The notes below the pieces were generated by a model that made no database searches, had not been told where the DNA came from, and was given only the letters and a program-made list of their open reading frames with translations. A stretch of DNA of 51,955 nucleotides, taken from Bacteroidales bacterium (GTDB lineage Bacteria; Bacteroidota; Bacteroidia; Bacteroidales; UBA932). Shown here piece by piece: positions 2,672 to 44,168 of the stretch (the first letter of the stretch is position 1; each line of letters starts with the position of its first letter). A program made the position numbers and the translations under genes. The stretch spans positions 1 to 51,955 of the forward strand of contig JAFZAF010000136.1 in the NCBI GenBank assembly GCA_017548335.1, given 5' to 3'.

Positions 2672-3364
2672 TCAAAAGAGTTTGCGCCGGCTGACCGTCG
2701 CGATGAAATCCTTCAGGTAAAACGGCTCGAAATAAGCCGTATCCTTGAAGTTCCCCGCCTCGAACTCCCGCATCGCAGGCCCGAGCATCGCCGAAGCGTG
2801 AGGGAAGGTCTGCACGAAACGGGTCTGCGGCCCGGCAAGTACCTCGCTGCACTTGGCGGCCCCGTCGCCGATGAACAGCACGGGCCCCCCGGCGCGCTCG
2901 GCGGAAAAACTGTCCGCATCGATTACGCGAGGTTCCACCTCGGTCAGCAGCTGCCCGTCGGGGGAGAAGACGGCGGTATAAACCTCCATCCGGCGCGCGT
3001 CCAGCAGGGGAATGACATAGCGGCAGCCATCGGGCACCAGGCCGTTGTCCCGGGCCTGCTGGACGAGTACGTCGAGCGTACCCACCGCCAGCAGCGGCAC
3101 GCCGGCCGCAAAGCAGATGCCTTTGGCCGTGGACACGCCCACGCGCAGCCCCGTGTAGGACCCCGGACCGCCGCTCACGCACACGGCGTCGAGGTCGGAA
3201 GCGAGCATCCCGGCGTCGTCCAGCAACCCCTTGATGAAAGGAGCGGTCATCGCGGCGTGCGCCCGGGGCTGGTCGCTTTCGCGGGTGGCCGCGACCTTGC
3301 CGTCGACGGCAAGGGCCACCGAACAGAGTGCGGTGGAAGTCTCGATGAGCAGGAGCCTAGACAT
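2672..3364 (-). CDS. tsaB: tRNA threonylcarbamoyladenosine (t6A) biosynthesis protein TsaB
   Basis: 230-aa ORF. N-terminus LLIETSTALCSVALA and GPGSYTGLRVG motif typical of TsaB/YeaZ. Confidence 0.9.
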   Translation of the reverse strand: MSRLLLIETSTALCSVALAVDGKVAATRESDQPRAHAAMTAPFIKGLLDDAGMLASDLDAVCVSGGPGSYTGLRVGVSTAKGICFAAGVPLLAVGTLDVLVQQARDNGLVPDGCRYVIPLLDARRMEVYTAVFSPDGQLLTEVEPRVIDADSFSAERAGGPVLFIGDGAAKCSEVLAGPQTRFVQTFPHASAMLGPAMREFEAGNFKDTAYFEPFYLKDFIATVSRRKLF

Positions 3365-14507: not shown

Positions 14508-16889
14508 CTAGTTGTTGTCGTTTTCTCCGTAACCATAGCCGTAACCATAGCCGTAACCATAGCCGTAACCATAGCCGTAGCCATAGCCGCCGTAGCCGTA
14601 ACCCCGCTTGAGTTCGGCACCGTTGAAGATGATGGCCATATTCTTCAGACGTCCGCTTTCCTGGATGTCATTCAACTGAGGGAGTATGCGACGGTCCAAC
14701 TGGCCGGCGCGCAGGACGAACAGGTTTACATCCACTACCCGGCTGATGATCATCGGATCTGCGACGACCTGCAACGGCACGCTGTCGAGCAGGACGTAGT
14801 CGTAACGCTTGCGCAGTTCGGAGATAAACTCGTCGAAGCGCTTGCGGCTCAGCAGTTCCGTCGGGTTGGGCGGGATGTGTCCGGCCGGGACGAAGTCCAC
14901 GCCTTCCGCCACTTCCTTTCGGATGATGTCCTCCACCCGGATGCTTTCTTCATAGAGATAGTTGGACAGGCCGGTGGTCTTGTGCTTCAGACCGAACGCC
15001 TTGGAAATGGTCCGCTTGCGGAGGTCAAGGTCCACAAGCACCACCTTCTTCCGGGCATCCGCCAGGCATCGTGCCATATTGGCACTAATAAAAGTCTTAC
15101 CGGCCGAGACGGCAAAGGATGTCGTCGCAATCACGGGATGGTCCACTCCTTCGGGCTTCATAAAATCGAGGTTGGTGCACATCATACGCATCGCCTCGGT
15201 GAAAACGCTTTTGCTTGATGCGTCGTATTTGATGGGGGACTCAGGTTCTTCCGTGTCTTTCTTTTTACGATGGCCCTTTTTCTTGTGTTGTGTAAGCGGG
15301 ATTTCTGCAAGGACCGGCACGGACACAAGTTCCTCGATCTCCTTGCGCGAGCGAACCTTGGTGTCAAGGAAAAGGCGGGCGATGAGGATCACGGCCGGGA
15401 CCAACAGGCCCACCAGCAGGGCTAGCATCAGCATCCTGTTGCGTTGCGGGTAAACCGGAGCCCAGGATCCTTCCGGACTGTCGATCATCCGGGCGTTGTT
15501 GTCGGCCATCGCCTGCGTAAGGGCATTTTCCTCTCGCTTGTTGAGCAGGAAAACATAAAGCTGCTCCTTGATCTGCTGCTGGCGCTCGATGTTCAGCATC
15601 TGCTTGGCCTTGGCCGGCATCGCGGTGAACTTCTGGATGGAGGAGGTCTCCTGGCGGGAGAGGTCCTGCTTTTGGACGTTCAGGCTGGTGAGCAGGTTCT
15701 GGATGATGCCGAGGATATTCTGACGCAGGGATTCGATGTTTCCTTCCACCTGCTTGACTGCGGGGCTGACGGCACTCGAGGCGGCCACCAATTTCTCCCG
15801 GCGCAGGATCAGTTCGTTGTATTGGCTGATGGCCTTGTCGGCATTGGCATCATTGAGGCCAGTGTTCACGGGAATCATCTCGAAAGAACCGATAGAACCC
15901 CGCACATAATCGCGCAGGTACTCGGCAAGGGAGATCCGGGTTTCGATCTGAACGATTTCCGCATTGTAACCGCGGCTCTCGTTAAGGTAGCGGGATGCGG
16001 CTTCGTCCACATCCATAATCCGCTGGGAACTCTTGAATGCGGCCAGGTTATCTTCCACGGCACCCAGTTCGTCCTGGATGATGACCAGGCGCTCGTTGAT
16101 GAAAGCGGCGGTGTTCACGGCCACGCGGTTCTTCTCCCGGATGGCGTCTTCGTTATACTTCTCAATCAGCACGTTGAGGATATCGCAGGCACGTTGGACA
16201 TTGAAATCCTGCTGCGAAAGGGAGAGGATATTGGAGTCCTGGCTGATCTGCAACCGGGACAGGAATGACGCCGCCTGTTGTTGAGAGGGCACCTTCCGGA
16301 CGGTGATCATACGCCCGAAAGCGGCTTCGTTGTAGAAGGATGTGGGTTGGAAAACGGCCCGACCACCGGCCAGGGCGATAGTATCGCCCAAGGCAACCTT
16401 CTGCGTGGCGTTACCGATTACAAGTTGGAGGGTCTTGGCGTCCAGCGGAGTTACTTGTGCGACGAACGGGCCGGGCTCTTCACCGTCCTCACGGGAGAAA
16501 AAGAGACGTATCGGCGCATTGCGGTAAAGTTCGATGTCGCGAAGGCGGATATGTTGCTTATAATCGATGTCGGCATCCAGGGAACGTACCACCTCGGTCA
16601 TCATCGCCTTTGATTGCAGCTGAAGCATTTCATTGCTCATACTGACGGTGTTGATGATGTTGCTGTAGTTGTCCATCCGGACAGAACGGGTGGAGTTGGT
16701 CGGGTCCTTGATAATGACCGTTACGTTGCTCCGGTAGAGCAACGGACTTTTGGAATAGCGGTACCAGGCATAGCCTACGGCAAGGGCTGCGCAGAGCAGG
16801 AACCAGTACCAATGGCTCAAAAGGTAAAAGAACAGGTCGACCAAATTGACTTGTTCTCCGCGGGAATTCTTTTTCAGGGAGGTATCCAT
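14508..16889 (-). CDS. wzc: polysaccharide co-polymerase / tyrosine autokinase (Wzc, BY-kinase)
   Basis: 793-aa ORF. Has an N-terminal Wzz-like chain-length domain with two TM segments. Carries Walker A (SAGKTF), Walker A' (VVLVDLDLRKR) and Walker B (YVLLDSVP). C-terminal Tyr cluster GYGYGGYGYGYGYGYGYGYGYGYGYGENDNN. Confidence 0.9.
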   Translation of the reverse strand: MDTSLKKNSRGEQVNLVDLFFYLLSHWYWFLLCAALAVGYAWYRYSKSPLLYRSNVTVIIKDPTNSTRSVRMDNYSNIINTVSMSNEMLQLQSKAMMTEVVRSLDADIDYKQHIRLRDIELYRNAPIRLFFSREDGEEPGPFVAQVTPLDAKTLQLVIGNATQKVALGDTIALAGGRAVFQPTSFYNEAAFGRMITVRKVPSQQQAASFLSRLQISQDSNILSLSQQDFNVQRACDILNVLIEKYNEDAIREKNRVAVNTAAFINERLVIIQDELGAVEDNLAAFKSSQRIMDVDEAASRYLNESRGYNAEIVQIETRISLAEYLRDYVRGSIGSFEMIPVNTGLNDANADKAISQYNELILRREKLVAASSAVSPAVKQVEGNIESLRQNILGIIQNLLTSLNVQKQDLSRQETSSIQKFTAMPAKAKQMLNIERQQQIKEQLYVFLLNKREENALTQAMADNNARMIDSPEGSWAPVYPQRNRMLMLALLVGLLVPAVILIARLFLDTKVRSRKEIEELVSVPVLAEIPLTQHKKKGHRKKKDTEEPESPIKYDASSKSVFTEAMRMMCTNLDFMKPEGVDHPVIATTSFAVSAGKTFISANMARCLADARKKVVLVDLDLRKRTISKAFGLKHKTTGLSNYLYEESIRVEDIIRKEVAEGVDFVPAGHIPPNPTELLSRKRFDEFISELRKRYDYVLLDSVPLQVVADPMIISRVVDVNLFVLRAGQLDRRILPQLNDIQESGRLKNMAIIFNGAELKRGYGYGGYGYGYGYGYGYGYGYGYGYGENDNN
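14529..14603. repeat. in-frame 12-bp tandem repeat encoding the (GY)n tail of Wzc
   Basis: GTAACCATAGCC repeated four times perfectly (14529-14576), followed by the degenerate units GTAGCCATAGCC and GCCGTAGCCGTAACC. Confidence 0.95.
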
Positions 16890-16896
16890 AAGGTAA

Positions 16897-17673
16897 TTAG
16901 AGGCGTTTTGCCAATATGAAAAGGGTGGTGATAGCTGTGGTCGCGGTAAACAGAGGCGTCAAAGCGGACATGATGGCTGTCATATTACTGGAGGAACGGA
17001 GGCCGCGAGGCTTCACATAGACGATGTCGTTCTGCCGGAGATAGAATACGGGCGAATCGAAAAGGCTCTTGGACTGCAGGTTGATGGAGTAGGCCATACG
17101 TACTCCTTCTTCCGTCCGGATGACCATTACGTCGGGAATCTTGGAATGTTCGTCAGTGCCTTGGGAACGGGCGAGGACCTGAAGGATATTGATGCTGCTG
17201 CCTTCGACAGGCATCACGCTCTGGCCTGTTTCTCCCAAAACCGTAATGGTGAAGTTCTCCATCTCCACGTTCACGATAGGTTCCCGGATATAGCCCAGGC
17301 GGACTATTTCGGATGCCACCCAGTCTTCCACCTCCTTCAGGGTCTTGCCCAGGATGTGCATCGTGCCCAATACCGGGAACTGGATGTCACCGTTTTTGTC
17401 CACCGTATAGATGGTGGCCGTGGTCAGCGCCTGTCCGGATTCTCCCACAAGGCCGTTACCTACGTTGAAAGGCGCCGCCAGTTCCGCATCGGTACTGTAA
17501 ACCTGGATGCTGATCCTGTCATCCACCTGCAGGCGCAGTTCAGGAGCCGGTTTGGCAAGGTAGGGTGTGTCATATTCCAAATCTCGCAGATAAGCGAGTT
17601 TGGCGGGAGTGGTGCAGGATGCCGCCAGCACGACGAATGCCGTCAGCATCAACCATTTAACATTTCCTTTCAT
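16897..17673 (-). CDS. wza: polysaccharide export outer-membrane protein (Wza-like)
   Basis: 258-aa ORF with a lipoprotein signal (LAASC). Poly_export-like region (LRLQVDDRISIQVY...FNV...YTVDKNGDIQFPVLG) and an SLBB-like segment. Sits next to wzc. Confidence 0.85.
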   Translation of the reverse strand: MKGNVKWLMLTAFVVLAASCTTPAKLAYLRDLEYDTPYLAKPAPELRLQVDDRISIQVYSTDAELAAPFNVGNGLVGESGQALTTATIYTVDKNGDIQFPVLGTMHILGKTLKEVEDWVASEIVRLGYIREPIVNVEMENFTITVLGETGQSVMPVEGSSINILQVLARSQGTDEHSKIPDVMVIRTEEGVRMAYSINLQSKSLFDSPVFYLRQNDIVYVKPRGLRSSSNMTAIMSALTPLFTATTAITTLFILAKRL

Positions 17674-32085: not shown

Positions 32086-33168
32086 TTAACCCAGGATGCG
32101 CTTGACCGCCTCGAGGTATTGTCTGCCAAACCGTAGATCCGGCTCCAGATAGTTCCCCTCCGCCCACTCGTTCCAGGACTTGATGAACACGAAGGGTTCG
32201 GGATCGCTCTTCCTGTCCAGACAATCCTTGACCTGGAGCAGATGCTTGCTGAAAAGCAGGGGATTGGAGTCGTGGAAGACGATGCCGTTCTTTCCCGTCC
32301 GCGGGGAATGGTCCCAATTGGGAATGATGGTAGGGATTACGTCGTCCCGGCAATCCTGTGCGGAGACGAAATACCGGCTCGCTTTTTTGTAACTGACGAT
32401 CCTCGGGAAACCGAGAAGCCGGTGCGCAAGTTTCGTGGCGGTCCGGTCGAGGAAGGAGACCTCGTCGGAATAACGGAAAATATTGATGGTCTCGACGGCG
32501 TCGAAGCCCTGGCTTAAGAACAGGTCCGTCTTGGAAGGATCATAGGTGTGGCCTATGATGAAAAGACCGGGCAGGCCATTTTCTGCCGCCAGTCTCCGCC
32601 ACAGGCCGATGAACGACTCCGCATTCGGAAGGCCTCCGGGATTATAGACCATAAACACCGGCTTCCCGTCCTTTTTAATATAGCGTCTGTCCTTGAATGC
32701 CGGCAGCAGGCGATGGAAATGACGGATGTGGTCCTCTTCGGAAGGATAGGTCTGCTCGATCAGCACCTCCCTCTCCCCGACACCGTGATAGAAGCCTCTC
32801 CAGGACTCGTTCGCCCACGCGACGCAGAAGGGGAAATCCGGCTCTCCCGAGGCGAGCATTTCATTGAAAGGCCTCTCAAGCAGCTCTTTTCCGTTCCCGA
32901 ACCAGTAATGCCAGTAACAGAACCCTTCTATTCCATATTGTCTGGCCAGGTCCGCCTGGGCCTTCCTCGTTTCAGGAACCCTCAAGTCATAGTATCCGAG
33001 GTCGGCGGGGACCCGGGGCTGATAATGGCCGGGGAACAGCCTTCTGGCTTTCCCGACGTTCGTCCATTCCGTAAACCCCGTTCCCCACCATCTGTCATTC
33101 TCGGGAATCGGATGGTATTGGGGCAGATACAGGGCGAGGATCCTGTATTTCTTCTTTTCCGGATTCAT
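32086..33168 (-). CDS. WbsX-family glycosyltransferase / GH99-like domain protein
   Basis: 360-aa ORF. ALYLPQYHPIPENDRWWGTGFTEWTNV...YGIEGFCYWHYWF is characteristic of the Glyco_tran_WbsX family. Confidence 0.8.
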   Translation of the reverse strand: MNPEKKKYRILALYLPQYHPIPENDRWWGTGFTEWTNVGKARRLFPGHYQPRVPADLGYYDLRVPETRKAQADLARQYGIEGFCYWHYWFGNGKELLERPFNEMLASGEPDFPFCVAWANESWRGFYHGVGEREVLIEQTYPSEEDHIRHFHRLLPAFKDRRYIKKDGKPVFMVYNPGGLPNAESFIGLWRRLAAENGLPGLFIIGHTYDPSKTDLFLSQGFDAVETINIFRYSDEVSFLDRTATKLAHRLLGFPRIVSYKKASRYFVSAQDCRDDVIPTIIPNWDHSPRTGKNGIVFHDSNPLLFSKHLLQVKDCLDRKSDPEPFVFIKSWNEWAEGNYLEPDLRFGRQYLEAVKRILG

Positions 33169-34613
33169 CGTTTGCCGATTTTCTGTTTGACGATGTCCTT
33201 AAGATAATAGAACTCTTCTTTCTTGAAGATGACGGATGTCAGCAGGTAATACGCGACGCCGGTGCCTGCACCCAGGAGCAACTTGACAAGATGGGAATCG
33301 CTGAGCCTCATTACGAGAATCACCAGTAGTCCCATAATGAGGGAATGCAGGAGGGACGTGGAGAAATCCTTGACTTGCTTCAAGGTCCCGTAGTCCAGCA
33401 GGATCCGGATGTTCTGGGTGCAGATGGCAAAACCGATGACGGCCGTGCAGATGCGTCCGATACACATCGCCGCCAGCCCCAGGGGAATCGTGATGAACAG
33501 CACTGCGACATCGAGCACCTTCGTGATCACGACCATTTTCAGATACAGGTCTGAACGGCCCGTGACATTGGGAAAGGTCATATTCATCCCGTTGATCGGA
33601 TACCACATCAGGGAGAAGCACAGGATCTGCAGATAGGGGATGGACTCCGCCCATTTGTCCGTGAGCAGGAGGCGTATGAAAGGGTCCGCCACGGCCGCCA
33701 GGCCGATCATCATAGGGAATGTCACATAGGCGAACAGCTTGATGAACCGCCGAAAGGCTTCGCGCAGCCGTTCCCTGTCGTCCTGGATGGAGCAGAGAAC
33801 GGGATAACTGACTCCCTGGACCAGTCCGTAAACATTCGAAGACGGGAACGTGGCGAATGATTCCGCACGGTTATACACCCCGAGGGCCGTCGGATTGAGA
33901 ACTTTCCCGATTGTGATGCTGTACATATTCCCCCATACGGTGTCGATCAGGCCGGAAGCGAGGAGTTTGGACCCGAAAGCGAACATCTCCTTGAGCGACT
34001 TCCAGGAAAAGACGGCCTTGGGACGCCAGCGGACAAAGATCCAGGCCAGCAGCGTGTTGACCGAACTGCCGACGAGGGATTGTACGACCAGGGCCCATAC
34101 ACCGTATCCTTTCCTGGCCATCCACAATCCTACCGCACCGATGGCGGTGATTGAAATGATGGAAATGACCGCCTGCGTCTTGAAATTGATGTCTATGGTC
34201 AGCTTGACGTGCTGAATGGCCCCGAATGCATTGATTATCAAGTTGAAGCATACAATCCTCGTAATCTTGGTAAGAATCGGGGTCTTATAGAATGCGGCAA
34301 TGGCCGGGGCGGAGATCCATAAGAGAAAGCAGAACAGCAGGGAGATGGCGATATTGAAATAGAATACGGTGTTGTAATCCGCCTCCGTCCTGTTCTTTTT
34401 CTGGATCAGGGCATTTGCAAAGCCGCTGTCTATAAAGGTCTGTGAAACCGCAAGGAAAATGCTCAACATCGCTACTACGCCATAATCCTCCGGTAAAAGG
34501 ATCCGGGCGATGAGGATGTTGAACACGAACTGTATGCCTTGGGCTGAAAAGCGGTTCAGCGCATTCCAAAGCACACCGTTGACGGTCTTTTCCTTCAGTG
34601 ATTTCTCAGGCAT
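33165..34613 (-). CDS. wzx: polysaccharide repeat-unit flippase (Wzx, MOP superfamily)
   Basis: 482-aa ORF with about 12 or more TM segments. N-terminus GVLWNALNRFSAQGIQFVFNILIARILLPEDYGVVAM is typical of Polysacc_synt flippases. Confidence 0.85.
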   Translation of the reverse strand: MPEKSLKEKTVNGVLWNALNRFSAQGIQFVFNILIARILLPEDYGVVAMLSIFLAVSQTFIDSGFANALIQKKNRTEADYNTVFYFNIAISLLFCFLLWISAPAIAAFYKTPILTKITRIVCFNLIINAFGAIQHVKLTIDINFKTQAVISIISITAIGAVGLWMARKGYGVWALVVQSLVGSSVNTLLAWIFVRWRPKAVFSWKSLKEMFAFGSKLLASGLIDTVWGNMYSITIGKVLNPTALGVYNRAESFATFPSSNVYGLVQGVSYPVLCSIQDDRERLREAFRRFIKLFAYVTFPMMIGLAAVADPFIRLLLTDKWAESIPYLQILCFSLMWYPINGMNMTFPNVTGRSDLYLKMVVITKVLDVAVLFITIPLGLAAMCIGRICTAVIGFAICTQNIRILLDYGTLKQVKDFSTSLLHSLIMGLLVILVMRLSDSHLVKLLLGAGTGVAYYLLTSVIFKKEEFYYLKDIVKQKIGKR

Positions 34614-36900: not shown

Positions 36901-37902
36901 ATGCCGGACCGGACGGACATATTCTTCGCGCTGCTGCGCGCGGGCCTGTGGGAGCAGGACCTGCGCCTGCACTCCGCGCTTGCCGCGGAAGACTGGCAGG
37001 TCATCTTGCAGACTGCCCGGCAGCAGGCGGTGCTGGGGCTGGTCTATCGCGGTATTGCGCATCTTCCTGAAGATCAGATGCCTCCGGCGGATGTGCGGCT
37101 CCGCCTCCTTGCGGAAATCGACCGCATCGAACGCCGGGGCCGGCGGATGGAGGAAGCGCAGCAGGAACTGCTCCGGCGCTTCCGCGACGCCGGCCTGCAT
37201 CCGCTGGTGCAGAAGGGGAGCGAAGCGGGGAAGTATTACCCCCAGCCGCTGCTGCGCGAGTGCGGCGACATCGACCTATATTTCGCGGGTAAGGAATTCG
37301 ACCAGGCGAAGGCGCTGCCGCCCGGCGTACGCACGGCCCCGGACGGCGCGGGCGTCTTTACCTTCCGGGACGTGACCGTGGAGCTGCACTCCCGCTACTT
37401 CGACCTGCATCTGCCGGATGCGAAACTCCCTGAAGTTCCTTCCGTCTTTGCCGAACTGCTGTTGCTCTCCGCCCACATCCTCAAGCACGCCATCGGAGCC
37501 GGGGTGGGCTGCAAGCAGCTCTGCGATATGGCCGTCGCGCTGGACCGCACGGATGGGCAGTATGACAAGGAGCTGCTGGAAAAGTATTTGAAGGCCGCCG
37601 GGCTGCTCTGCTGGCACCGCGTACTCTGCTCGCTGCTTGTCTCCGATTTCGGGCTCGATCCCGCCCGCTGCCTGCCGGATTTCAAGCCCTGCAACCCCGC
37701 CCCGCTGCGCCGCATCGTGCTGTCTGGCGGTGCATTCGGGCTTTTCGACCCGACGCGCGAAAAGGCCGTCCGTTCCGGCAAGGTGGCCCGGAAACTGCAG
37801 GCGGCCGCATCATTCCTGAAACGCCTGCCGTTCTCGCTGCGCGTGGCGCCGCGGGAAACCTTCGCCACCATCGGCGAACTCATTAAAGGGAATCTGTCCT
37901 AG
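36901..37902 (+). CDS. uncharacterised nucleotidyltransferase family protein (NTP_transf_5-like, Pol-beta fold)
   Basis: 333 aa from the ATG at 36901 (the track starts at a TTG at 36898). NTase signature KGSEAG...ECGDIDLYF (hG[GS]...DxD). N-terminal FFALLRAGLW helical region typical of this family. The only plus-strand gene inside the capsule region. Confidence 0.75.
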   Translation: MPDRTDIFFALLRAGLWEQDLRLHSALAAEDWQVILQTARQQAVLGLVYRGIAHLPEDQMPPADVRLRLLAEIDRIERRGRRMEEAQQELLRRFRDAGLHPLVQKGSEAGKYYPQPLLRECGDIDLYFAGKEFDQAKALPPGVRTAPDGAGVFTFRDVTVELHSRYFDLHLPDAKLPEVPSVFAELLLLSAHILKHAIGAGVGCKQLCDMAVALDRTDGQYDKELLEKYLKAAGLLCWHRVLCSLLVSDFGLDPARCLPDFKPCNPAPLRRIVLSGGAFGLFDPTREKAVRSGKVARKLQAAASFLKRLPFSLRVAPRETFATIGELIKGNLS

Positions 37903-39215
37903 AACTTCCTGCCACCCACGATGCGCAGGAAGGTAAGCGCGAGCAGGCGTGCGTCGAACCAGATGGAGTGGTTCCTCAGATAATAAAGGTCCAGTTCGAG
38001 CCGCGTCAGCATCTTGTCCAACGTGTCGGTGTAGCCGTTGTACAGCGTGGCGTAGCTGGTCACACCCGGGCGAATCTGGAACAGGTAGCGGTAGCGCGGG
38101 TTCACCGCCATAATCTGGTCGATGTAGAACTGCCGCTCGGGGCGGTAGCCGATGAAGGACATATCGCCGCGGAAGACGTTCCACAGCTGCGGAAGCTCGT
38201 CCAGGTGGTGCTGGCGCAGGAATTTGCCCACCTTGGTCAGGCGCGGATCATCGTCACCGGCATAAAGAGCCGGGGCGCCGGAAGCTTCGGCGTCGATACG
38301 CATCGAACGGAATTTCAAGATGTTGAAGGGCTTGCCACCGCGCCCCATCCGCTCCTGCGAGTAGATGGCCGGGCCGCCGTCTTCCCGCTTCACGGCCAGG
38401 GCGCAGATAAGCGCCAGCGGCGAAAAGACGATGAGCAGCAGGCCGGAGAGCACGATGTCGAAACTGCGCTTCACGGCGTGTCCTGCCAGAGACATCGCGT
38501 CGTTGTTGGGGATGTCCGAGCCGACACCGCCCGTTCCGGCTTCGCGGTCGCCGTCTTCTCCCTTGGGGAACAGGATGCAGTCCACCCCGCCCAGGCGCCA
38601 TTGCAGGGCGTTGATTTCTTCGGGCGTGGCCGCGGCATAGACGATGCGGTTGCCGATGACCTTGCCTGCGTCGGCGGGATCTCCGGAGATGTAGCCCAGC
38701 ACGGAATAGCGGCCGGACGCCTCCGACTCGTCCGCCAGGGTCACGGATTCCCTCCCGATGCCGGCCACCAGGGCGCTGGCGCGGCCCGTCGCGGCGTGGA
38801 TCTCGCGCTCCTCCCGCCAGAGGCTGCGCACCAGGAGACGGGGCGCGAACAGGGCCACGGTGGTAAAGACCAGGTCGCTCAGCAGGGCCACGACGGCCAG
38901 GGTGCTGGAGGGCAATTTCAACAGGCCCACGAACACGAGGACGAGCATTCCGGCTTCCTTGATCAGGATTGCACGACCAAGGCGGCGGTAGCCTCGCAGG
39001 GAAGCGTACCGGGTGACGACCCGTGTGCTTCCCGTAAAGAGCAGCCCCAGCAGGGTGAGCAACGCACCGCAGCCGGTCCACCAGGCCACGACGACGATGA
39101 ACCCGAAGAACGGCTCGGACACGGCGCGCATCATCAGGATAGCCGCCAGCGACGCCATAGCCGACAGCAGGGTATCTACTGTCAGGCGTCGGCGGAGTGC
39201 GCGTTTCTCGTTCAT
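37899..39215 (-). CDS. undecaprenyl-phosphate sugar phosphotransferase (initiating transferase, WbaP/WcaJ-like)
   Basis: 438-aa ORF with N-terminal TM segments. C-terminal Bac_transf domain (KRSFDIVLSGLLLIVFSPL...PFNILKFRSM...DPRLTKVGKFLRQHHLDELPQLWNVFRGDMSFIGYRPE). Confidence 0.92.
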   Translation of the reverse strand: MNEKRALRRRLTVDTLLSAMASLAAILMMRAVSEPFFGFIVVVAWWTGCGALLTLLGLLFTGSTRVVTRYASLRGYRRLGRAILIKEAGMLVLVFVGLLKLPSSTLAVVALLSDLVFTTVALFAPRLLVRSLWREEREIHAATGRASALVAGIGRESVTLADESEASGRYSVLGYISGDPADAGKVIGNRIVYAAATPEEINALQWRLGGVDCILFPKGEDGDREAGTGGVGSDIPNNDAMSLAGHAVKRSFDIVLSGLLLIVFSPLALICALAVKREDGGPAIYSQERMGRGGKPFNILKFRSMRIDAEASGAPALYAGDDDPRLTKVGKFLRQHHLDELPQLWNVFRGDMSFIGYRPERQFYIDQIMAVNPRYRYLFQIRPGVTSYATLYNGYTDTLDKMLTRLELDLYYLRNHSIWFDARLLALTFLRIVGGRKF

Positions 39216-39234
39216 ACGTTTTTAAAAAGACTCA

Positions 39235-39242
39235 CAAAGATA
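39235..39242 (-). promoter_or_regulatory. candidate -7 box (TATCTTTG) for the initiating transferase gene
   Basis: Plus-strand CAAAGATA, 20 nt upstream of the ATG at 39215. The palindrome TATTCTT-GA-AAGAATA (39246-39261) lies in the predicted spacer. Confidence 0.45.
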
Positions 39243-39471
39243 TACTATTCTTGAAAGAATAACAACTTCTACCCCCTTCTACCCCGCAGTGCCGGAGCTG
39301 GGCTTCCCTTTAAAAATAAATATGTTCGCGCGCGATAAAAGCCAATTCTCGAAGTGCGGGAGAACACAATGCATTGATATACAAACAGATAATACCCCCC
39401 CCCTGAAATGGATAAACTGAGCCGTGGTGGAAAAAAGATAAAAATATACTTGCATATTCAGATATTCGTGG

Positions 39472-39479
39472 TAAATTTG
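39472..39479 (+). promoter_or_regulatory. candidate -7 box (TAAATTTG) for the UpxY-like operon
   Basis: TAnnTTTG match 70 nt upstream of the ATG at 39549, with a TTG-containing element about 20 nt further upstream. Implies a 5' leader of about 60 nt. Confidence 0.45.
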
Positions 39480-39548
39480 CAACTTGTAGTATTGTGGATA
39501 GCAGAAAAACGGCACAACACAGCGCAATAATAAATAACAGCAAAGGGA

Positions 39549-40082
39549 ATGTCTTCCACTCAGTCGAATAGGCCTGTTTCCGAGGTCCGCTGGTTCGCGG
39601 CGCGCACGCGCTGCGGATCGGAGTTGTCCGTTGCCGGACGGCTGGAGAAACTGGGTGTGGAGAGTTTCCTTCCCACGGTAAAACTCACTCGTACGCGCGG
39701 GCACGTCCCTTATGAACGCGCGTTGATTCCGAGTCTGGTGTTCCTGCGGACTACCAAGGAGCGGGCTTGTGAACTCGCCAACCGCGAGGCCGTGCCGGTG
39801 AAATACCTGATCGACCCTGCCACCCGTACCCTGATGGTTGTCCCGGACAAGCAGATGGACGACTTCCGCCGTGTGCTGGACCTCTCGACCGACGAAGGCG
39901 GCCTGATCGACCGCCCTCTGGCGTTGGGAGACCGCGTCCGCGTGGTGAAGGGCGTGCTGGCCGGCGTGGAAGGCTATGTGCTGGAGTTCAAGGGCCGCAC
40001 CTATGTGGTGGTGCGCCTGCTGGACAGCTGGTTCGCCAAGGCCAGCGTACCCCGGGCCTGGTTGGAGCCGATAGACAAATAG
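39549..40082 (+). CDS. UpxY-family transcription antiterminator (specialised NusG paralog)
   Basis: 177-aa ORF. NGN-like N-terminus (VRWFAARTRCGSELSVAGRLEKLGVESFLPT) and a KOW motif (GDRVRVVKGVLAGVEGYVLEF). Size and pattern match the Bacteroidales UpxY/NusG-like family. Confidence 0.85.
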   Translation: MSSTQSNRPVSEVRWFAARTRCGSELSVAGRLEKLGVESFLPTVKLTRTRGHVPYERALIPSLVFLRTTKERACELANREAVPVKYLIDPATRTLMVVPDKQMDDFRRVLDLSTDEGGLIDRPLALGDRVRVVKGVLAGVEGYVLEFKGRTYVVVRLLDSWFAKASVPRAWLEPIDK

Positions 40083-40103
40083 AAGACGAAACGAAATAAA
40101 TTT

Positions 40104-40286
40104 ATGCATAAAATGAAAAAGAAAAAACAATTCGTAAGGCCGGCCGTCCTGCAGGATCTTTCCCTCCTGCCGGAGACGCCGATCCTTGCCGGTTCGGTCG
40201 TGGACAATGCGACTATTGTCTCCACCGGCCAGGAAGTCGAGAACTACGACTTTTCTGGAGAGGATTTTAATCACAATTGGGAATAG
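40104..40286 (+). CDS. hypothetical small protein (mini-ORF 1, ETPIL motif)
   Basis: 60-aa ORF (MHKMKKKKQFVRPAVLQDLSLLPETPILAGS...). Starts 21 nt after upxY-like and ends 12 nt before the next lipoprotein gene. Shares a motif with an unlisted ORF at 46177-46317. Confidence 0.5.
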   Translation: MHKMKKKKQFVRPAVLQDLSLLPETPILAGSVVDNATIVSTGQEVENYDFSGEDFNHNWE

Positions 40287-40298
40287 GAGGACCAGGCA

Positions 40299-41831
40299 AT
40301 GCTTATGAAAGGAAAATCCATACTCCTCCTGCTCGCAGCAGGGACCCTCTTCCTGGCGGGATGCCAGAAGACGGGTTTGACCGACGGCACCGGCAGCAAT
40401 GGCTCCATCCGTTTCTCCGCCACCGCCAGTTCCGTAGGCACCAAGACCGCCTATGGCGACTACGACAACGAAACGAATCCCACGTGGCAGGTCGTCAACT
40501 GGGTTACGGGCGACAAACTCCGTATCTACAGCGACAAGGCCGTTCACCGCTACGCGAATATCAATTATGCCGATTATGAGATTGTCGGTGAGCCGACCGT
40601 CTCCGGTCACGAGAGCAAGGCCACGATCGAAGGAACCTCCCTGGACAACGAAACCGTTCCCGGAGGCCTCGACAACGGCGCGGATATGCGCAACGGCCTG
40701 ATCTGGGGCGACGAGCCGGATACGTACACCTTCTACGGTATCTATCCGTCCACCGACTGTGCATCCGGCACTTCCGGTACGCTGAACGGATCGATCGCTG
40801 CCGACCAGGGCACCGGCGACCTCGAGGTGAATATGCCGAAGTACGGTTTCCTGACCGCCGCGCAGCAGATCACCCTGAAGGCCACCGATTTCGACAGCAA
40901 CAACGCCGTGACTCCTCTGAAGGACGGCGGCCCCAACGTCGAAATGCGCTTCGAGCCCGCCTTCACCGCCATCGAGGTGACGCTGAAGAGCACCCAGGCC
41001 AACACGGTCCTTACGGGCGCGTCCCTGGTGTCCTCCTCTACGGCCCTTGCCGGTGACTTCACGGTCGCATACACCGCGGGCACGAGCGGCTTTACGAAAG
41101 CCATTGACTGCAAGTCCGCTACCGGGAAGTCGGTCTCCATCTCCGGCCTCACCGCCACCATCGGCCCGGATGCGCCCTACACCTTCACGCTCTTCGCCTT
41201 GCCGCAGGACCTGAAGGACCTGGAGCTTGTGTTTGATATCCAGAATGCACAGTCCCGTCATCTTGCCCTGAAGAAGAACAATCAGTACCTTACCTTTGCC
41301 GCCTGCAAGAAGCATCGTATCTATGGGCTGCAGATGCCCGACGGCACCTGGACCCTTTACCTTCAGTCCGAGGTGGCGGAGTGGGAAGACAATGCCAAGA
41401 ACCCGAAATACGGTGAGGCGGACGACGAAGGCGCCATCATCAGCGCCGGCGCCCTGGAGTTCGTCTCCGGATTCTCCGGTTCCCCGAGTCGTACCTCCGC
41501 TACGCTGGAGTCGGCCTCGTCTCCGCTGGTCGCTTACTACTCCGTGTATTCTCCTACCAACGGTACGTGGAGGATTACGATGAAGGGAGAGAAAGCTTCT
41601 TCCTTCACGCTGGCATCGCCCAATGTCGAAGGCGCTTCCGCGTCCGGTGATGGTAAGTACATCGAGGGCCCGGTGGACCAGCGCGTGTTCTTCCAGGTGT
41701 CTGCCAACGACGGCGCCGCCTCCGGCGACAGCGTCGAACTCTGGTTCACGGTCCTCGTCGGGGACAAGGAATACAGCCTCCATTCCGAGGTCACCCGCAG
41801 CCAGCTGCCTCTTACCGTCAAGATGCCTTAA
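40299..41831 (+). CDS. fimbrillin-like (Mfa-like) surface lipoprotein
   Basis: 510-aa ORF with a lipoprotein signal (LFLAGC). The N-terminal pattern IRFSATASSVGTKTAYG...W..GDKLRIYS resembles Bacteroidales fimbrillin-family proteins. Motif-level call only. Confidence 0.6.
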   Translation: MLMKGKSILLLLAAGTLFLAGCQKTGLTDGTGSNGSIRFSATASSVGTKTAYGDYDNETNPTWQVVNWVTGDKLRIYSDKAVHRYANINYADYEIVGEPTVSGHESKATIEGTSLDNETVPGGLDNGADMRNGLIWGDEPDTYTFYGIYPSTDCASGTSGTLNGSIAADQGTGDLEVNMPKYGFLTAAQQITLKATDFDSNNAVTPLKDGGPNVEMRFEPAFTAIEVTLKSTQANTVLTGASLVSSSTALAGDFTVAYTAGTSGFTKAIDCKSATGKSVSISGLTATIGPDAPYTFTLFALPQDLKDLELVFDIQNAQSRHLALKKNNQYLTFAACKKHRIYGLQMPDGTWTLYLQSEVAEWEDNAKNPKYGEADDEGAIISAGALEFVSGFSGSPSRTSATLESASSPLVAYYSVYSPTNGTWRITMKGEKASSFTLASPNVEGASASGDGKYIEGPVDQRVFFQVSANDGAASGDSVELWFTVLVGDKEYSLHSEVTRSQLPLTVKMP

Positions 41832-41843
41832 TTGGAAAGGAAT

Positions 41844-44168
41844 ATGAAAAAGATTATCGCATATATCTTCGCAGGAGCCGTCCTTATGCTTGCGGCGTCC
41901 TGCACTTGGGAGCCCGTCGACCCGAACGCCGAAGGCAATGAATTCGCCCTGCAGGTCTACTGCTCGGAACTTACGAAGGCGGGTACTACGCCGGGCGAGG
42001 GCAACGAGAACAAGGTTGTCTCCCTGGACTACTTCTTCTTTGCCAACGCTGAGTCCGGCGCCGCCGTGTTCCACTATCGGGACGCCGCCCCTTCCGCCAC
42101 TTCCGGAAAGTACCAGGGAATCTTCACGCCTGGTAACACCTATGGTGGAAACGAGTTCCCGACCCGCGAGGTCCTTTACGGCTCCAACGATTTCACGACG
42201 GTGTTCGTCGTCGCAAACCTGCGTTCGGTTCCGACGACTCTTCCTACATTGGAGGATCTCAAGGCCATCGCAATTGATCAGTCCTTTATGTCTGACGGTG
42301 CAGCCCTCGCTACCGACAGCGCCGATATGGAGTTCGTGATGACGGCCGAAGCCGAGGTCCGGGGCAATGTGTCCGGAGTCTTCACGACCCTCGGCCTCGA
42401 GCGCCTGGCGGCCAAGATGGTTTTCAACGTCAAGGTTGCCAAGGAGGTGTCCCTTTCGGGCACGCTGGACGGCGACGGAGGCACTTATACGGAGACGTGG
42501 ACGCCGATGCTGAACGGCAACAACGTCCGCGTTTATCTGCAGCAGGCCGTCACCAATACCGTGCTGGGTGTCGCCGACGGCGAGCACTACCCTGCTTCGA
42601 TAACCCAGACTGACTACAATCCAATCGTGCCCGCCAGTTGGAGTGACAACGAGACGACGGTAGGACCGTTCTATTCCTTCGCCACATCCTGGGACGACAA
42701 CCTCGCCCAGGCTCCTTTCGGAAAGATCATCGTTCCCTGGAAGGTCGTCCGCAAGGACGCCAACGGCAACGTGTTCTACTCCGCCCAGCGCGAGGTCTAT
42801 TACAAAGTAATGCTGCCTGACACTGAGATTCTGGCCAACAACTTCTACCAGTTCACCGTGGACATTACGGTGGTGGGTACCGAGACGGATCCCGAGGTGA
42901 CCATCGACGCCACCTATCAGGTGGCCGACTGGACCACCGGCGGCGCCGGCAAGGTGAACACCCAGATCAGCGACATCAAGTACCTGACCGTGGACCGCAA
43001 GCAGGAGAACGCCAACGGCATCATCGATGTCTATGTTCAGGGCGCGCAGGTGCAGTATTCCGCATCGGAAACGGCGGTGATTGACTGGGATGTTTCCAGC
43101 ATCTATTACCTGGATTATATTACCACTGGGTTGACGGACCATAAGCGTTATATCATCCAGAATGGTACGCTCAATACGAATAATGGAAAGAATATCACCA
43201 GTTTGGATGCAGCGAAGGCCTGGGTTGATCTGACTGAAGTCGAGAATCCTAATTCCGAGATTCCGGACACCTATATCACGTTGAACCACGCCTTGATCAA
43301 CGACCTGACCAACACCTATTTCGATGCCTCCCCGTATTTCTATGAAATAACCGTTAGGTTGTCCACGGGAGGTGCCGACCCCAAGACCGTCATCTTCAAG
43401 CAGTATCCGCAGAGCTACATCGAGGAGATGCCGAATACGGGGAACGATATGCATCAGGTCGGTTCTGGCTGGAGTGCTCAGAATGTTGATTTTGGCTATG
43501 TTTATGTGAATGGCGGTCACAATGGTTCGAATAACTATGGTGGTGTCCACGGGTTGACAGGCCAAAACACCAACCCTAATATGTATGTCATTACGACGTC
43601 GGTTTTGAGCGATTCTCAAAAGACGATAGGCGACCCCCGTATCGCAAAGGGGCAGTATGACTTGATTGATAATACCCAATTCAACAGCGCCCCGGTTGTA
43701 TCTGGTGGTTCCAATCGACGTTTGACATACTATAAGCGAGCCGAAACCAGTGACAGGAGCCGTTATATGATTGCTCCGGCGTTCCGAGTAGCGTCATCTT
43801 ATGGTGTTACCAATTCTCTTTCCTATGCCAATGGCAGCCGCCGTTGTGCTTCTTATCAGGAGGATGGTTATCCGGCCGGACGCTGGCGCCTGCCGACGGC
43901 TGCGGAAATCGAGTATTGTGTGACATTGTCAGCCAAGGGCAGGTTGCCTGTTTTGTTTGGCGATAGTAATAGCCAGACCGCATCAACTGATTATTGGAGT
44001 GCAAATGGTTATATTACGGTCGTAGGGAGCAGCGTGACTCCTCATATTGGAACTTTCACCGGGGATAATAGATATGTCCGTTGCGTGTACGACGAGTGGT
44101 ATTGGGGACCCGACCGTGTGACGGCCGCACAGCACGCCTTTATGTGGGGAGATGAACAGGATCAATAA
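41844..44168 (+). CDS. fimbrial/adhesin-like lipoprotein with a C-terminal DUF1566/Fib_succ_major-like domain
   Basis: Start trimmed to the ATG at 41844 (MKKIIAYIFAGAVLMLAASC). FimA-like N-terminal pattern (NENKVVSLDYFFFA). The C-terminus (CASYQEDGYPAGRWRLPTAAEIEY...DYWSANG...RYVRCVYD) matches the WRLPT / YWS / VRCV pattern. Confidence 0.6.
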   Translation: MKKIIAYIFAGAVLMLAASCTWEPVDPNAEGNEFALQVYCSELTKAGTTPGEGNENKVVSLDYFFFANAESGAAVFHYRDAAPSATSGKYQGIFTPGNTYGGNEFPTREVLYGSNDFTTVFVVANLRSVPTTLPTLEDLKAIAIDQSFMSDGAALATDSADMEFVMTAEAEVRGNVSGVFTTLGLERLAAKMVFNVKVAKEVSLSGTLDGDGGTYTETWTPMLNGNNVRVYLQQAVTNTVLGVADGEHYPASITQTDYNPIVPASWSDNETTVGPFYSFATSWDDNLAQAPFGKIIVPWKVVRKDANGNVFYSAQREVYYKVMLPDTEILANNFYQFTVDITVVGTETDPEVTIDATYQVADWTTGGAGKVNTQISDIKYLTVDRKQENANGIIDVYVQGAQVQYSASETAVIDWDVSSIYYLDYITTGLTDHKRYIIQNGTLNTNNGKNITSLDAAKAWVDLTEVENPNSEIPDTYITLNHALINDLTNTYFDASPYFYEITVRLSTGGADPKTVIFKQYPQSYIEEMPNTGNDMHQVGSGWSAQNVDFGYVYVNGGHNGSNNYGGVHGLTGQNTNPNMYVITTSVLSDSQKTIGDPRIAKGQYDLIDNTQFNSAPVVSGGSNRRLTYYKRAETSDRSRYMIAPAFRVASSYGVTNSLSYANGSRRCASYQEDGYPAGRWRLPTAAEIEYCVTLSAKGRLPVLFGDSNSQTASTDYWSANGYITVVGSSVTPHIGTFTGDNRYVRCVYDEWYWGPDRVTAAQHAFMWGDEQDQ

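Follow-up and report, generated by a model that had tools for sequence, protein, structure and literature searches.

A conserved small-protein gene at the head of type V pilus-like lipoprotein operons of Bacteroidales

Among the major adhesion structures of Bacteroidales are type V pili and related surface lipoprotein systems; they are phase-variable, and their regulation and early assembly are poorly understood. In the capsule loci of Bacteroides, UpxZ is a trans-locus inhibitor that acts on non-cognate UpxY antiterminators. The roles of UpxY and UpxZ in these loci are summarised in PMC4611039 and PMC9409006. The element described here is a 60-codon open reading frame (ORF), designated ORF1, from contig JAFZAF010000136.1 of the Bacteroidales bacterium assembly GCA_017548335.1; the whole analysed stretch of 51,955 nucleotides (nt) is called the window. 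ORF1 starts 21 nt after the stop codon of an UpxY-family gene, which is the first gene of the operon, and ends 12 nt before a gene for a lipoprotein with the Mfa_like_1 domain, so it was correctly placed between an antiterminator and a lipoprotein gene in the original prediction made from this DNA. The core idea of that prediction, a conserved coding small protein of an unrecognised family tied to the downstream lipoprotein operon, is upheld by the analysis. It is almost certain that ORF1 is a true gene and that it belongs to a new family found at the head of these operons. A shorter ORF further downstream, designated ORF2, had been proposed as its relative and is treated below.

The conservation claimed for ORF1 was strongly confirmed. 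In a single-sequence search, close relatives were found in 87 clusters with 59-98% identity, mostly 55-63 amino acids (aa) long, with a few called at 74-76 aa. A profile search covering 1.84 billion cluster representatives (50% identity clustering, E<=1e-3) returned 332 family representatives, almost all of 54-65 aa and matched end to end. Longer profile matches have the domain at the C-terminus, which is expected of mis-called start codons, and one 623-aa repeat protein among the matches was rejected as a false positive. Frame, length, and start codon are maintained across the 332 diverged clusters. The invariant methionine of the wide family corresponds to M4 of ORF1 and the alignment of the family hidden Markov model (HMM) begins there; ATG 40113 is for this reason the likely start of ORF1, giving a protein of 57 aa.

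The ratio of non-synonymous to synonymous substitution (dN/dS, omega) of ORF1 is 0.11, 0.14, 0.18, and 0.15 in comparison with the independently retrieved loci L001, L008, L005, and L002, respectively. The proportion of synonymous differences (pS) in these comparisons is 0.48-0.69, with synonymous sites near saturation. The codons of the P-I-L residues and of the C-terminal FNHNWE change synonymously between loci, and the residues are fixed. The low ratios together with the near-saturated synonymous sites indicate that selection acts on the peptide and not on the DNA, which settles in favour of the peptide a choice between peptide and nucleotide constraint that had been posed for this ORF. Loci L037-L040 were left out of the calculation because they were retrieved by exact protein identity, and the number of non-synonymous differences is zero there by construction. 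In L038-L040 (positions 3001-3183), ORF1 has three synonymous differences from the window and pS of 0.08, as against 0.25-0.41 for the flanking UpxY and first lipoprotein genes. This low value could be due to the selection of loci with an identical protein, to a recombination mosaic, or to an extra constraint at the nucleotide level.

The consensus of the family is MKKKxxYxxPxVLxEVxLxxExxILAGSVVDxxxVxSxGQEVxxYDFSxxxFNHxWE, in proteins of about 55-62 aa. Conserved positions extend from residue 10 to residue 59, the best conserved being P13, L28, S31, G42-Q43, and W59, plus the C-terminal FNHxWE. Among 149 representatives, GQ is present in 132, and 147 have tryptophan among the last six residues. 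Between GQEV and the tryptophan, the linker (before FNH) differs in length by as many as 6 residues, and 1-5 residues follow the tryptophan. One subfamily (L023, L026, and L027) does not have the N-terminal YxxP part, and the conserved core is represented by about 40-45 C-terminal residues. The word ETPIL, which had been taken as the signature of the ORF, was identified in only 14 of the 87 close relatives and 2 of the 149 representatives, and it is a feature of a local subfamily rather than a family motif. When compared with an HMM of 119 diverse members, ORF1 scored 97.7 bits (E=1.7e-29), with ORF1 itself being row 1 of the alignment.

ORF1 translates as originally quoted. Its head is basic (+6, residues 1-13) and the remainder acidic (-9), and neither cysteine nor lipobox is present in it. 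Cysteine is absent from 107 of the 149 representatives, and the family has no conserved cysteine. A signal peptide was not found, as the best 15-residue hydropathy is 1.37, compared to 2.43 for the signal peptide of the neighbouring lipoprotein; a non-canonical signal peptide was rejected on the same ground. The O-glycosylation motif D-S/T-x is absent from the family consensus, and no supporting context was found for a Pup-like tag or for ETPILAGS as a TonB box. AlphaFold with the 119-sequence alignment gave no fold (predicted template modelling score 0.25, one 4-residue helix), and the peptide is predicted to be disordered. The family had no match in Pfam, NCBIfam, or PDB sequences, with none in Pfam for ORF1 at E<=0.01. 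Its members are labelled only as 'hypothetical protein' in the source databases, and no description of such a small ORF was found in a literature search.

The genomic context was examined in about 22 distinct loci. A scan of genome contigs with the close alignment gave 38 pattern matches and one confirmed locus, and a degenerate DNA pattern for GQE...FNHNWE gave 14 metagenome loci, about eight of them with family members. All identifiable carriers are uncultured Bacteroidales represented by metagenome-derived contigs, many from the assembly sets WILK20 and XIEF21, which we take to be ruminant gut samples. In all of the about 22 loci, the small ORF is located directly 5' of a lipoprotein gene from one homologous family. 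The 510-aa lipoprotein of the window matches L009_357 (3e-68), L014_358 (3e-15), and L011_590 (4e-14), and L002_406 is connected to the family via L014_358 (2e-20). The spacer is 2-13 nt or the genes overlap in ATGA, with L035 (26 nt) as the sole exception, and FimD-like and FimE_C-like genes usually come next after the first lipoprotein. An UpxY gene is directly 5' in about nine loci only (the window, L009, L020, L029, two in L031, L032, and two in GCA_016648615); in the loci that do not have it, the small ORF is the first cistron and has its own promoter motif. Since the lipoprotein gene always adjoins and UpxY is found in only about nine loci, the small ORF belongs to the pilus-like operon and is not an accessory of the antiterminator. 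The original prediction put its emphasis on the NusG paralog; with UpxY missing 5' of the small ORF in over half of the related loci, that link turned out to be weak.

Multiple paralogous operons are present in several genomes, every one of them with a small ORF of its own, and some of these operons flank tyrosine-recombinase switches. The small proteins of the window and of L011 or L014 are 47-48% identical, while the first lipoproteins there match only at E about 1e-14; the small-protein family evolves much slower than the surface lipoproteins. No transporters or modifying enzymes (peptidase-ABC, radical-SAM) were identified in more than 20 annotated neighbourhoods. In one subfamily, a 57-aa ORF of helix-turn-helix appearance (MKQILVRHGEISAIADLLRVSDRTVMRALRYERNSD...) was noticed in L035 (3594-3767) and L036 (357-530), about 200 nt 5' of the small ORF and beside a Peptidase_S24 gene.

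The explanation preferred here, held tentatively and somewhat short of probable, is that ORF1 is a translationally coupled first cistron and that its disordered peptide acts in trans, preferably in a regulatory role. With the ORF1 stop codon 12 nt from the next start, and similarly short distances or overlaps in the relatives, ribosomes would be passed to the first lipoprotein gene; we infer this coupling from the anatomy of the operon. The released peptide, whose head is basic and whose tail is acidic and aromatic with W-E at its end, would bind a conserved partner in trans via short linear motifs. The small proteins are recognisable between loci with distantly related first lipoproteins, a sign that their partner is conserved. 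In this role, the peptide would label its own locus as 'on' and target the expression machinery, be it UpxY-type antiterminators, RNA polymerase, or Rho, and the outcome would be a coordinated choice of which paralogous, phase-variable pilus-like operon is expressed. UpxZ has such a function in capsule loci, as have the disordered proteins FlgM and ExsE in other appendage systems.

The regulatory part, taken separately, is possible but doubtful. It is favoured because disordered small proteins of appendage operons are typically regulators, because of the UpxZ position beside UpxY, which the small ORF holds wherever UpxY is present, and because the loci are multi-copy and phase-variable. Several points weigh against it. 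No detected homology ties the peptide to any regulator, and no match to UpxZ (PF06603) or to another Pfam, NCBIfam, or PDB entry was found. UpxY is missing beside the small ORF in over half of the loci, so a strict pairing of the UpxY-UpxZ type cannot hold generally. The first lipoprotein gene is the one neighbour that is always present, and a partnership with the lipoprotein at the protein level therefore fits at least as well. In addition, all contigs in which the family was observed are metagenome-derived and from Bacteroidales. A wider proposal, likewise doubtful, is that the ORF1 peptide is an obligate, previously unrecognised part of type-V-pilus-like operons, disordered, about 57 residues long, produced together with the first pilin-like lipoprotein, and serving as a locus-specific switch or assembly factor. 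Such a part could be an UpxZ-like cross-locus inhibitor that works also without UpxY, or a strand-donating prepilin partner. If this is true, short forms of the ORF2 type would extend the principle to other large surface lipoproteins.

A partnership with the lipoprotein at the protein level would make the ORF1 product a pre-export escort or cofactor of the first pilin-like lipoprotein, produced stoichiometrically through coupling, which would keep the precursor export-competent or time its delivery. It would bind the cytoplasmic precursor at the signal peptide or at the N-terminal region 'IRFSA...TKTAY...W..GD.L.IY', for example by strand addition, and would remain at the membrane. Tightly coupled neighbouring cistrons often encode interacting proteins, and small operon-encoded binders of signal peptides exist, such as NapD for NapA. 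One homologous lipoprotein family adjoins in every locus examined, across very short spacers, each paralogous operon has its own copy of the small ORF, and the peptide is extended and has beta-prone hydrophobic stretches. We consider this role unlikely all the same, as dedicated cytoplasmic chaperones are not known to be required by Sec-exported lipoproteins, known export chaperones are folded whereas this peptide is predicted without a fold, and only a single small ORF serves an operon of 3-5 similar lipoproteins. Furthermore, the conservation of the peptide far exceeds that of the lipoprotein, which evolves fast, and ORF2, if related, precedes a lipoprotein without detectable pilin-like similarity. 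The peptide might also be exported itself, as a secreted signal or pilus component or as a precursor with a double-glycine-like leader (...ExxILAG, then S...), and a secreted or precursor peptide was among the options first offered. LxxExxIL-A-G-S is loosely like such a leader, and the small size and first operon position resemble those of precursor-peptide genes. However, G30 is not invariant (AS, TS, NS, and PS variants exist), the neighbourhoods have neither a peptidase-ABC transporter nor radical-SAM or other modifying enzymes, and neither a Sec signal peptide nor a conserved cysteine is present; this option has become very improbable.

A cis-acting regulatory upstream ORF, working by ribosome arrest, by control of termination and reinitiation, or by shielding of the leader RNA from Rho, is rather improbable as well, although it accounts for several features. 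Where UpxY is missing, the small ORF is the promoter-proximal first cistron and ends 2-13 nt before the next start; the peptide is predicted as extended and not folded; its conserved core is C-terminal, with the N-terminal part missing in one subfamily; and ORF2 is also located within a 5' leader. The conservation is, however, spread along the whole peptide and not clustered near the stop codon. The variable distances from GQEV to the tryptophan and from there to the end are a poor fit to the fixed geometry of the ribosomal tunnel. In the window, ORF1 is the second gene, after UpxY, and so is not needed to load the first ribosome, and the last six residues of ORF2 are unconstrained. The proposal of an ops-like site for the NusG paralog or a structured RNA in a chance open frame, or of a spurious ORF, is contradicted by the results and scarcely credible any longer. 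In its favour, the 9-mer CCGATCCTT is, as was claimed, common to ORF1 and ORF2, with copies at 40179-40187 and 46264-46272, and it is retained in the closest relatives L001, L008, and L010; the low pS in L038-L040 also points this way, in a comparison biased by the choice of loci with identical protein. But two copies of the 9-mer compare with 0.64 expected, and 12 of 100 shuffles reach two, so that the significance once given to it was not confirmed. In distant loci the 9-mer is lost (ATT CTT, CTG TTG, TTC CTA) and the residues are retained. Synonymous divergence rises to pS of 0.5-0.7 with omega of 0.1-0.2 while the frame, length, and start hold throughout the family. Rfam gave no match at E<=1, the RNA folding z-score of -1.37 is no better than that of shuffled sequence, and most loci bearing the ORF have no UpxY gene.

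ORF2 also translates as quoted, and it aligns with ORF1 without gaps over 20 residues, with 7 identities including ETPIL. The shared five-residue word does not have the significance attributed to it, since shuffled ORF1 averages 2.1 six-frame matches and 85% of shuffles have at least one. Only ORF2 itself was recovered in a protein database search, but intact 46-aa homologues are present in two other strains (L039 and L040), found via contigs with an identical ORF1 protein. Between the window and these strains, in the core codons 14-40 (VYLPPxCFVVxxSxETPxLQFSTKDWE), there are 9.5 synonymous vs. 4.5 non-synonymous changes, with omega about 0.1, and both ends, including the last six residues, are unconstrained. 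It is this core that can be aligned with the ORF1 family. ORF2 is therefore probably a true coding sequence, a small ORF within the leader of the gene for the 1192-aa lipoprotein. In a single pre-specified comparison with the family, hhalign gave P=0.0019 and probability of 14%. Against the family HMM, ORF2 scored 7.7 bits, over the N-terminal half of the family only, E=0.21 among 1201 six-frame segments, and no remnant of GQEV...FNHxWE was identified at ORF2 in any frame. ORF2 may be distantly related to the ORF1 family and truncated; the conservation of ORF2 and the hhalign result speak for a link between the two ORFs.

The stop codon of ORF2 is 46 nt from the start of the 1192-aa gene, compared to the 2-13 nt typical of the ORF1 family. 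Both ORFs had been described as preceding a fimbrillin-like gene, which is correct for ORF1 with its Mfa_like_1 neighbour but was not supported for ORF2, because the 1192-aa lipoprotein has no fimbrillin match in Pfam, even when the first 400 residues are searched at E<=1. In L039 (907-2105), a 340-aa gene comes after the ORF2 homologue; about 30 codons at the start of this gene (signal peptide) match those of the 1192-aa gene in the window (46177-46450), and the body is much shorter. This suggests, as far as sequence comparison goes, that gene bodies may be swapped while the promoter, the small ORF, and the signal-peptide head in front of them are conserved.

The features of the locus are given in Table 1. 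The promoter motif, the gene order, and the hairpin with its T-run define a transcription unit composed of promoter, UpxY gene, ORF1, three pilin-like lipoprotein genes, and terminator. TAnnTTTG has just 10 copies on the + strand of the 52-kb window, and three of the 10 are within the two intergenic regions of this locus. The operon has signatures of type V (Fim/Mfa) pilus-like operons, namely Mfa_like_1, FimD_tip_adhes, lipoboxes, and the relationship of the 598-aa protein to FimE_C-containing proteins of other loci. The last of these is based on L011_728, which has a precomputed weak FimE_C match; the 598-aa lipoprotein has no direct match in Pfam. The FimD-like ORF is listed from TTG 41832, and its start is more likely ATG 41844 (MKKIIAY...).

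Table 1. Features of the ORF1 operon, of the ORF2 module, and of the adjacent capsule/exopolysaccharide (EPS) locus in the window
Feature	Position	Strand	Basis or remark
Bacteroidetes-type -7 promoter motif TAAATTTG, probable operon promoter	39472..39479	+	5' of UpxY gene; read from sequence
UpxY-family NusG paralog, 177 aa	39549..40082	+	NCBIfam NF033644 antiterm_UpxY 117.5 bits (cutoff 100); Pfam NusG 1.1e-7
ORF1, small-protein gene, 60 codons from ATG 40104 (57 aa from ATG 40113)	40104..40286	+	Translation, homologues, dN/dS
Intercistronic spacer, 12 nt, ORF1 stop to next ATG	40287..40298	+	Sequence
First pilin-like lipoprotein, 510 aa, lipobox LAGC	40299..41831	+	Pfam Mfa_like_1 2e-9
FimD-like tip-adhesin lipoprotein	41832..44168	+	NCBIfam NF052322 FimD_tip_adhes 296.9 bits (cutoff 170)
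Third lipoprotein, 598 aa	44184..45980	+	phmmer match to L011_728, 1e-22
Intrinsic-terminator-like hairpin CCGCCGCCC-GAACT-GGGCGGCGG then TTTTTAT, operon end	46000..46029	+	Read from sequence; absent from consensus-scanner list
-7 promoter motif TATATTTG	46135..46142	+	5' of ORF2; conserved in L039 and L040
ORF2, 46 aa, in 5' leader of 1192-aa lipoprotein gene	46177..46317	+	Intact homologues in L039, L040
1192-aa lipoprotein, Big_2 + Y_phosphatase3 domains	46364..49942	+	Pfam
Bac_transf	37899-39215	-	Capsule/EPS locus
Wzx-like flippase	33165-34613	-	Capsule/EPS locus
Poly_export	16897-17673	-	Capsule/EPS locus
Wzc-like kinase	14508-16889	-	Capsule/EPS locus

The UpxY gene, ORF1, and the 510-aa gene (39549-41831) are all in one reading frame with single stop codons between them. 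Stop-codon readthrough or fusion of the three was rejected, as the frame relation differs in L005 and L011, and the common frame is probably a coincidence. An antisense open frame of 1466 codons (39279-43679, - strand) was noticed opposite the UpxY gene, ORF1, and the genes of the first two lipoproteins; most likely, GC-rich codon usage has produced it as an artefact.

In L011 (5807-6941) and L016 (5887-6953), a tyrosine-recombinase segment of about 1.1 kb is located between two divergent operons, each composed of small ORF, Mfa-like, FimD-like, and FimE-like genes; the same was seen in L012, L013, L022, and L028. A 23-nt inverted repeat (ATCTCTTGGGGAGAGAT core) forms the boundaries of the segment, a TAATTTTG promoter motif is located inside one end, and the segment is oppositely oriented in L011 and L016, the orientation of the left flank being the same. 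Judged from its layout, it looks like an invertible promoter-plus-recombinase toggle that would choose between two pilus-like operons.

The start of a large capsule/EPS locus (14508-39215, - strand) is divergent to the UpxY gene, and the locus itself does not include an UpxY gene. In L039 and L040, a module of ORF2 and a 1188-aa lipoprotein gene is present divergently 5' of UpxY-ORF1, and in the window, L037, and L038 the Bac_transf/capsule locus is found there instead. Comparison of the window regions 39216-39586 and 46000-46176 with L039 and L040 is consistent with a putative inversion of the operon of about 6.6 kb, from UpxY to the 598-aa gene, between strains. An imperfect C-rich inverted repeat was identified at both operon ends (AACAGATAATACCCCCCCCC at 39384-39403 vs. 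the reverse complement of 46015-46036). With this segment turned round, transcription of the UpxY-led operon would continue into Bac_transf and the genes of the capsule. The Bac_transf gene of related loci has the same direction as the pilus-like operons and is either the last gene or located right before UpxY.

A family that is strongly selected and heads hundreds of diverged operons, yet has no entry in Pfam or NCBIfam, illustrates how standard annotation leaves a conserved small protein uncharacterised. ORF1 offers a mutable handle on the expression of one operon at a time and on the handling of the first subunit, and the loci document the use of UpxY-type antiterminators outside capsule loci. 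The family is new and unnamed, and its general kind, the small operon-leader protein, is already known.

Among described systems, UpxZ matches in part by its position, being the second gene right after UpxY at the head of a surface-structure operon, as ORF1 is in the window and its counterparts are in about eight loci, and in having one copy per paralogous, often phase-variable locus. It differs in sequence, as PF06603 is not one of the 21 families to which members of the set of 119 had matches at E<=1. Unlike UpxZ, the ORF1 family has proteins of about 57 aa that are predicted to be unfolded, is found mostly in loci without UpxY, and heads pilus-like lipoprotein operons and not polysaccharide loci. 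With leader and arrest peptides such as TnaC, SpeFL, and SecM, it shares the small 5' ORF directly before structural genes, the extended peptide, and tryptophan near the C-terminus, but the ORF1 family is conserved in full length, has variable spacing to the stop codon, and is under purifying selection like that of an ordinary protein. FlgM, ExsE, PapI, and PapB are likewise small proteins encoded in or beside appendage operons, where they couple or cross-regulate loci, and FlgM and ExsE are intrinsically disordered. The ORF1 family has no homology to them and no DNA-binding features, and type V pili are not known to have a secretion route for a peptide of this sort. In PMC12940148, a keyword look-up gave no passage on a conserved small first cistron and zero occurrences each of UpxY, NusG, and 'antitermin'. 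Downstream of ORF1, the genes for Mfa_like_1, FimD-like, and FimE_C-like lipoproteins are like those of the Fim/Mfa type V pilus operons, including phase-variable ones (PMC12940148). Related loci with Tsr-type tyrosine recombinases and a sugar-transferase (EPS) gene match the EPS/Mfa1 loci of Phocaeicola vulgatus and Bacteroides fragilis.

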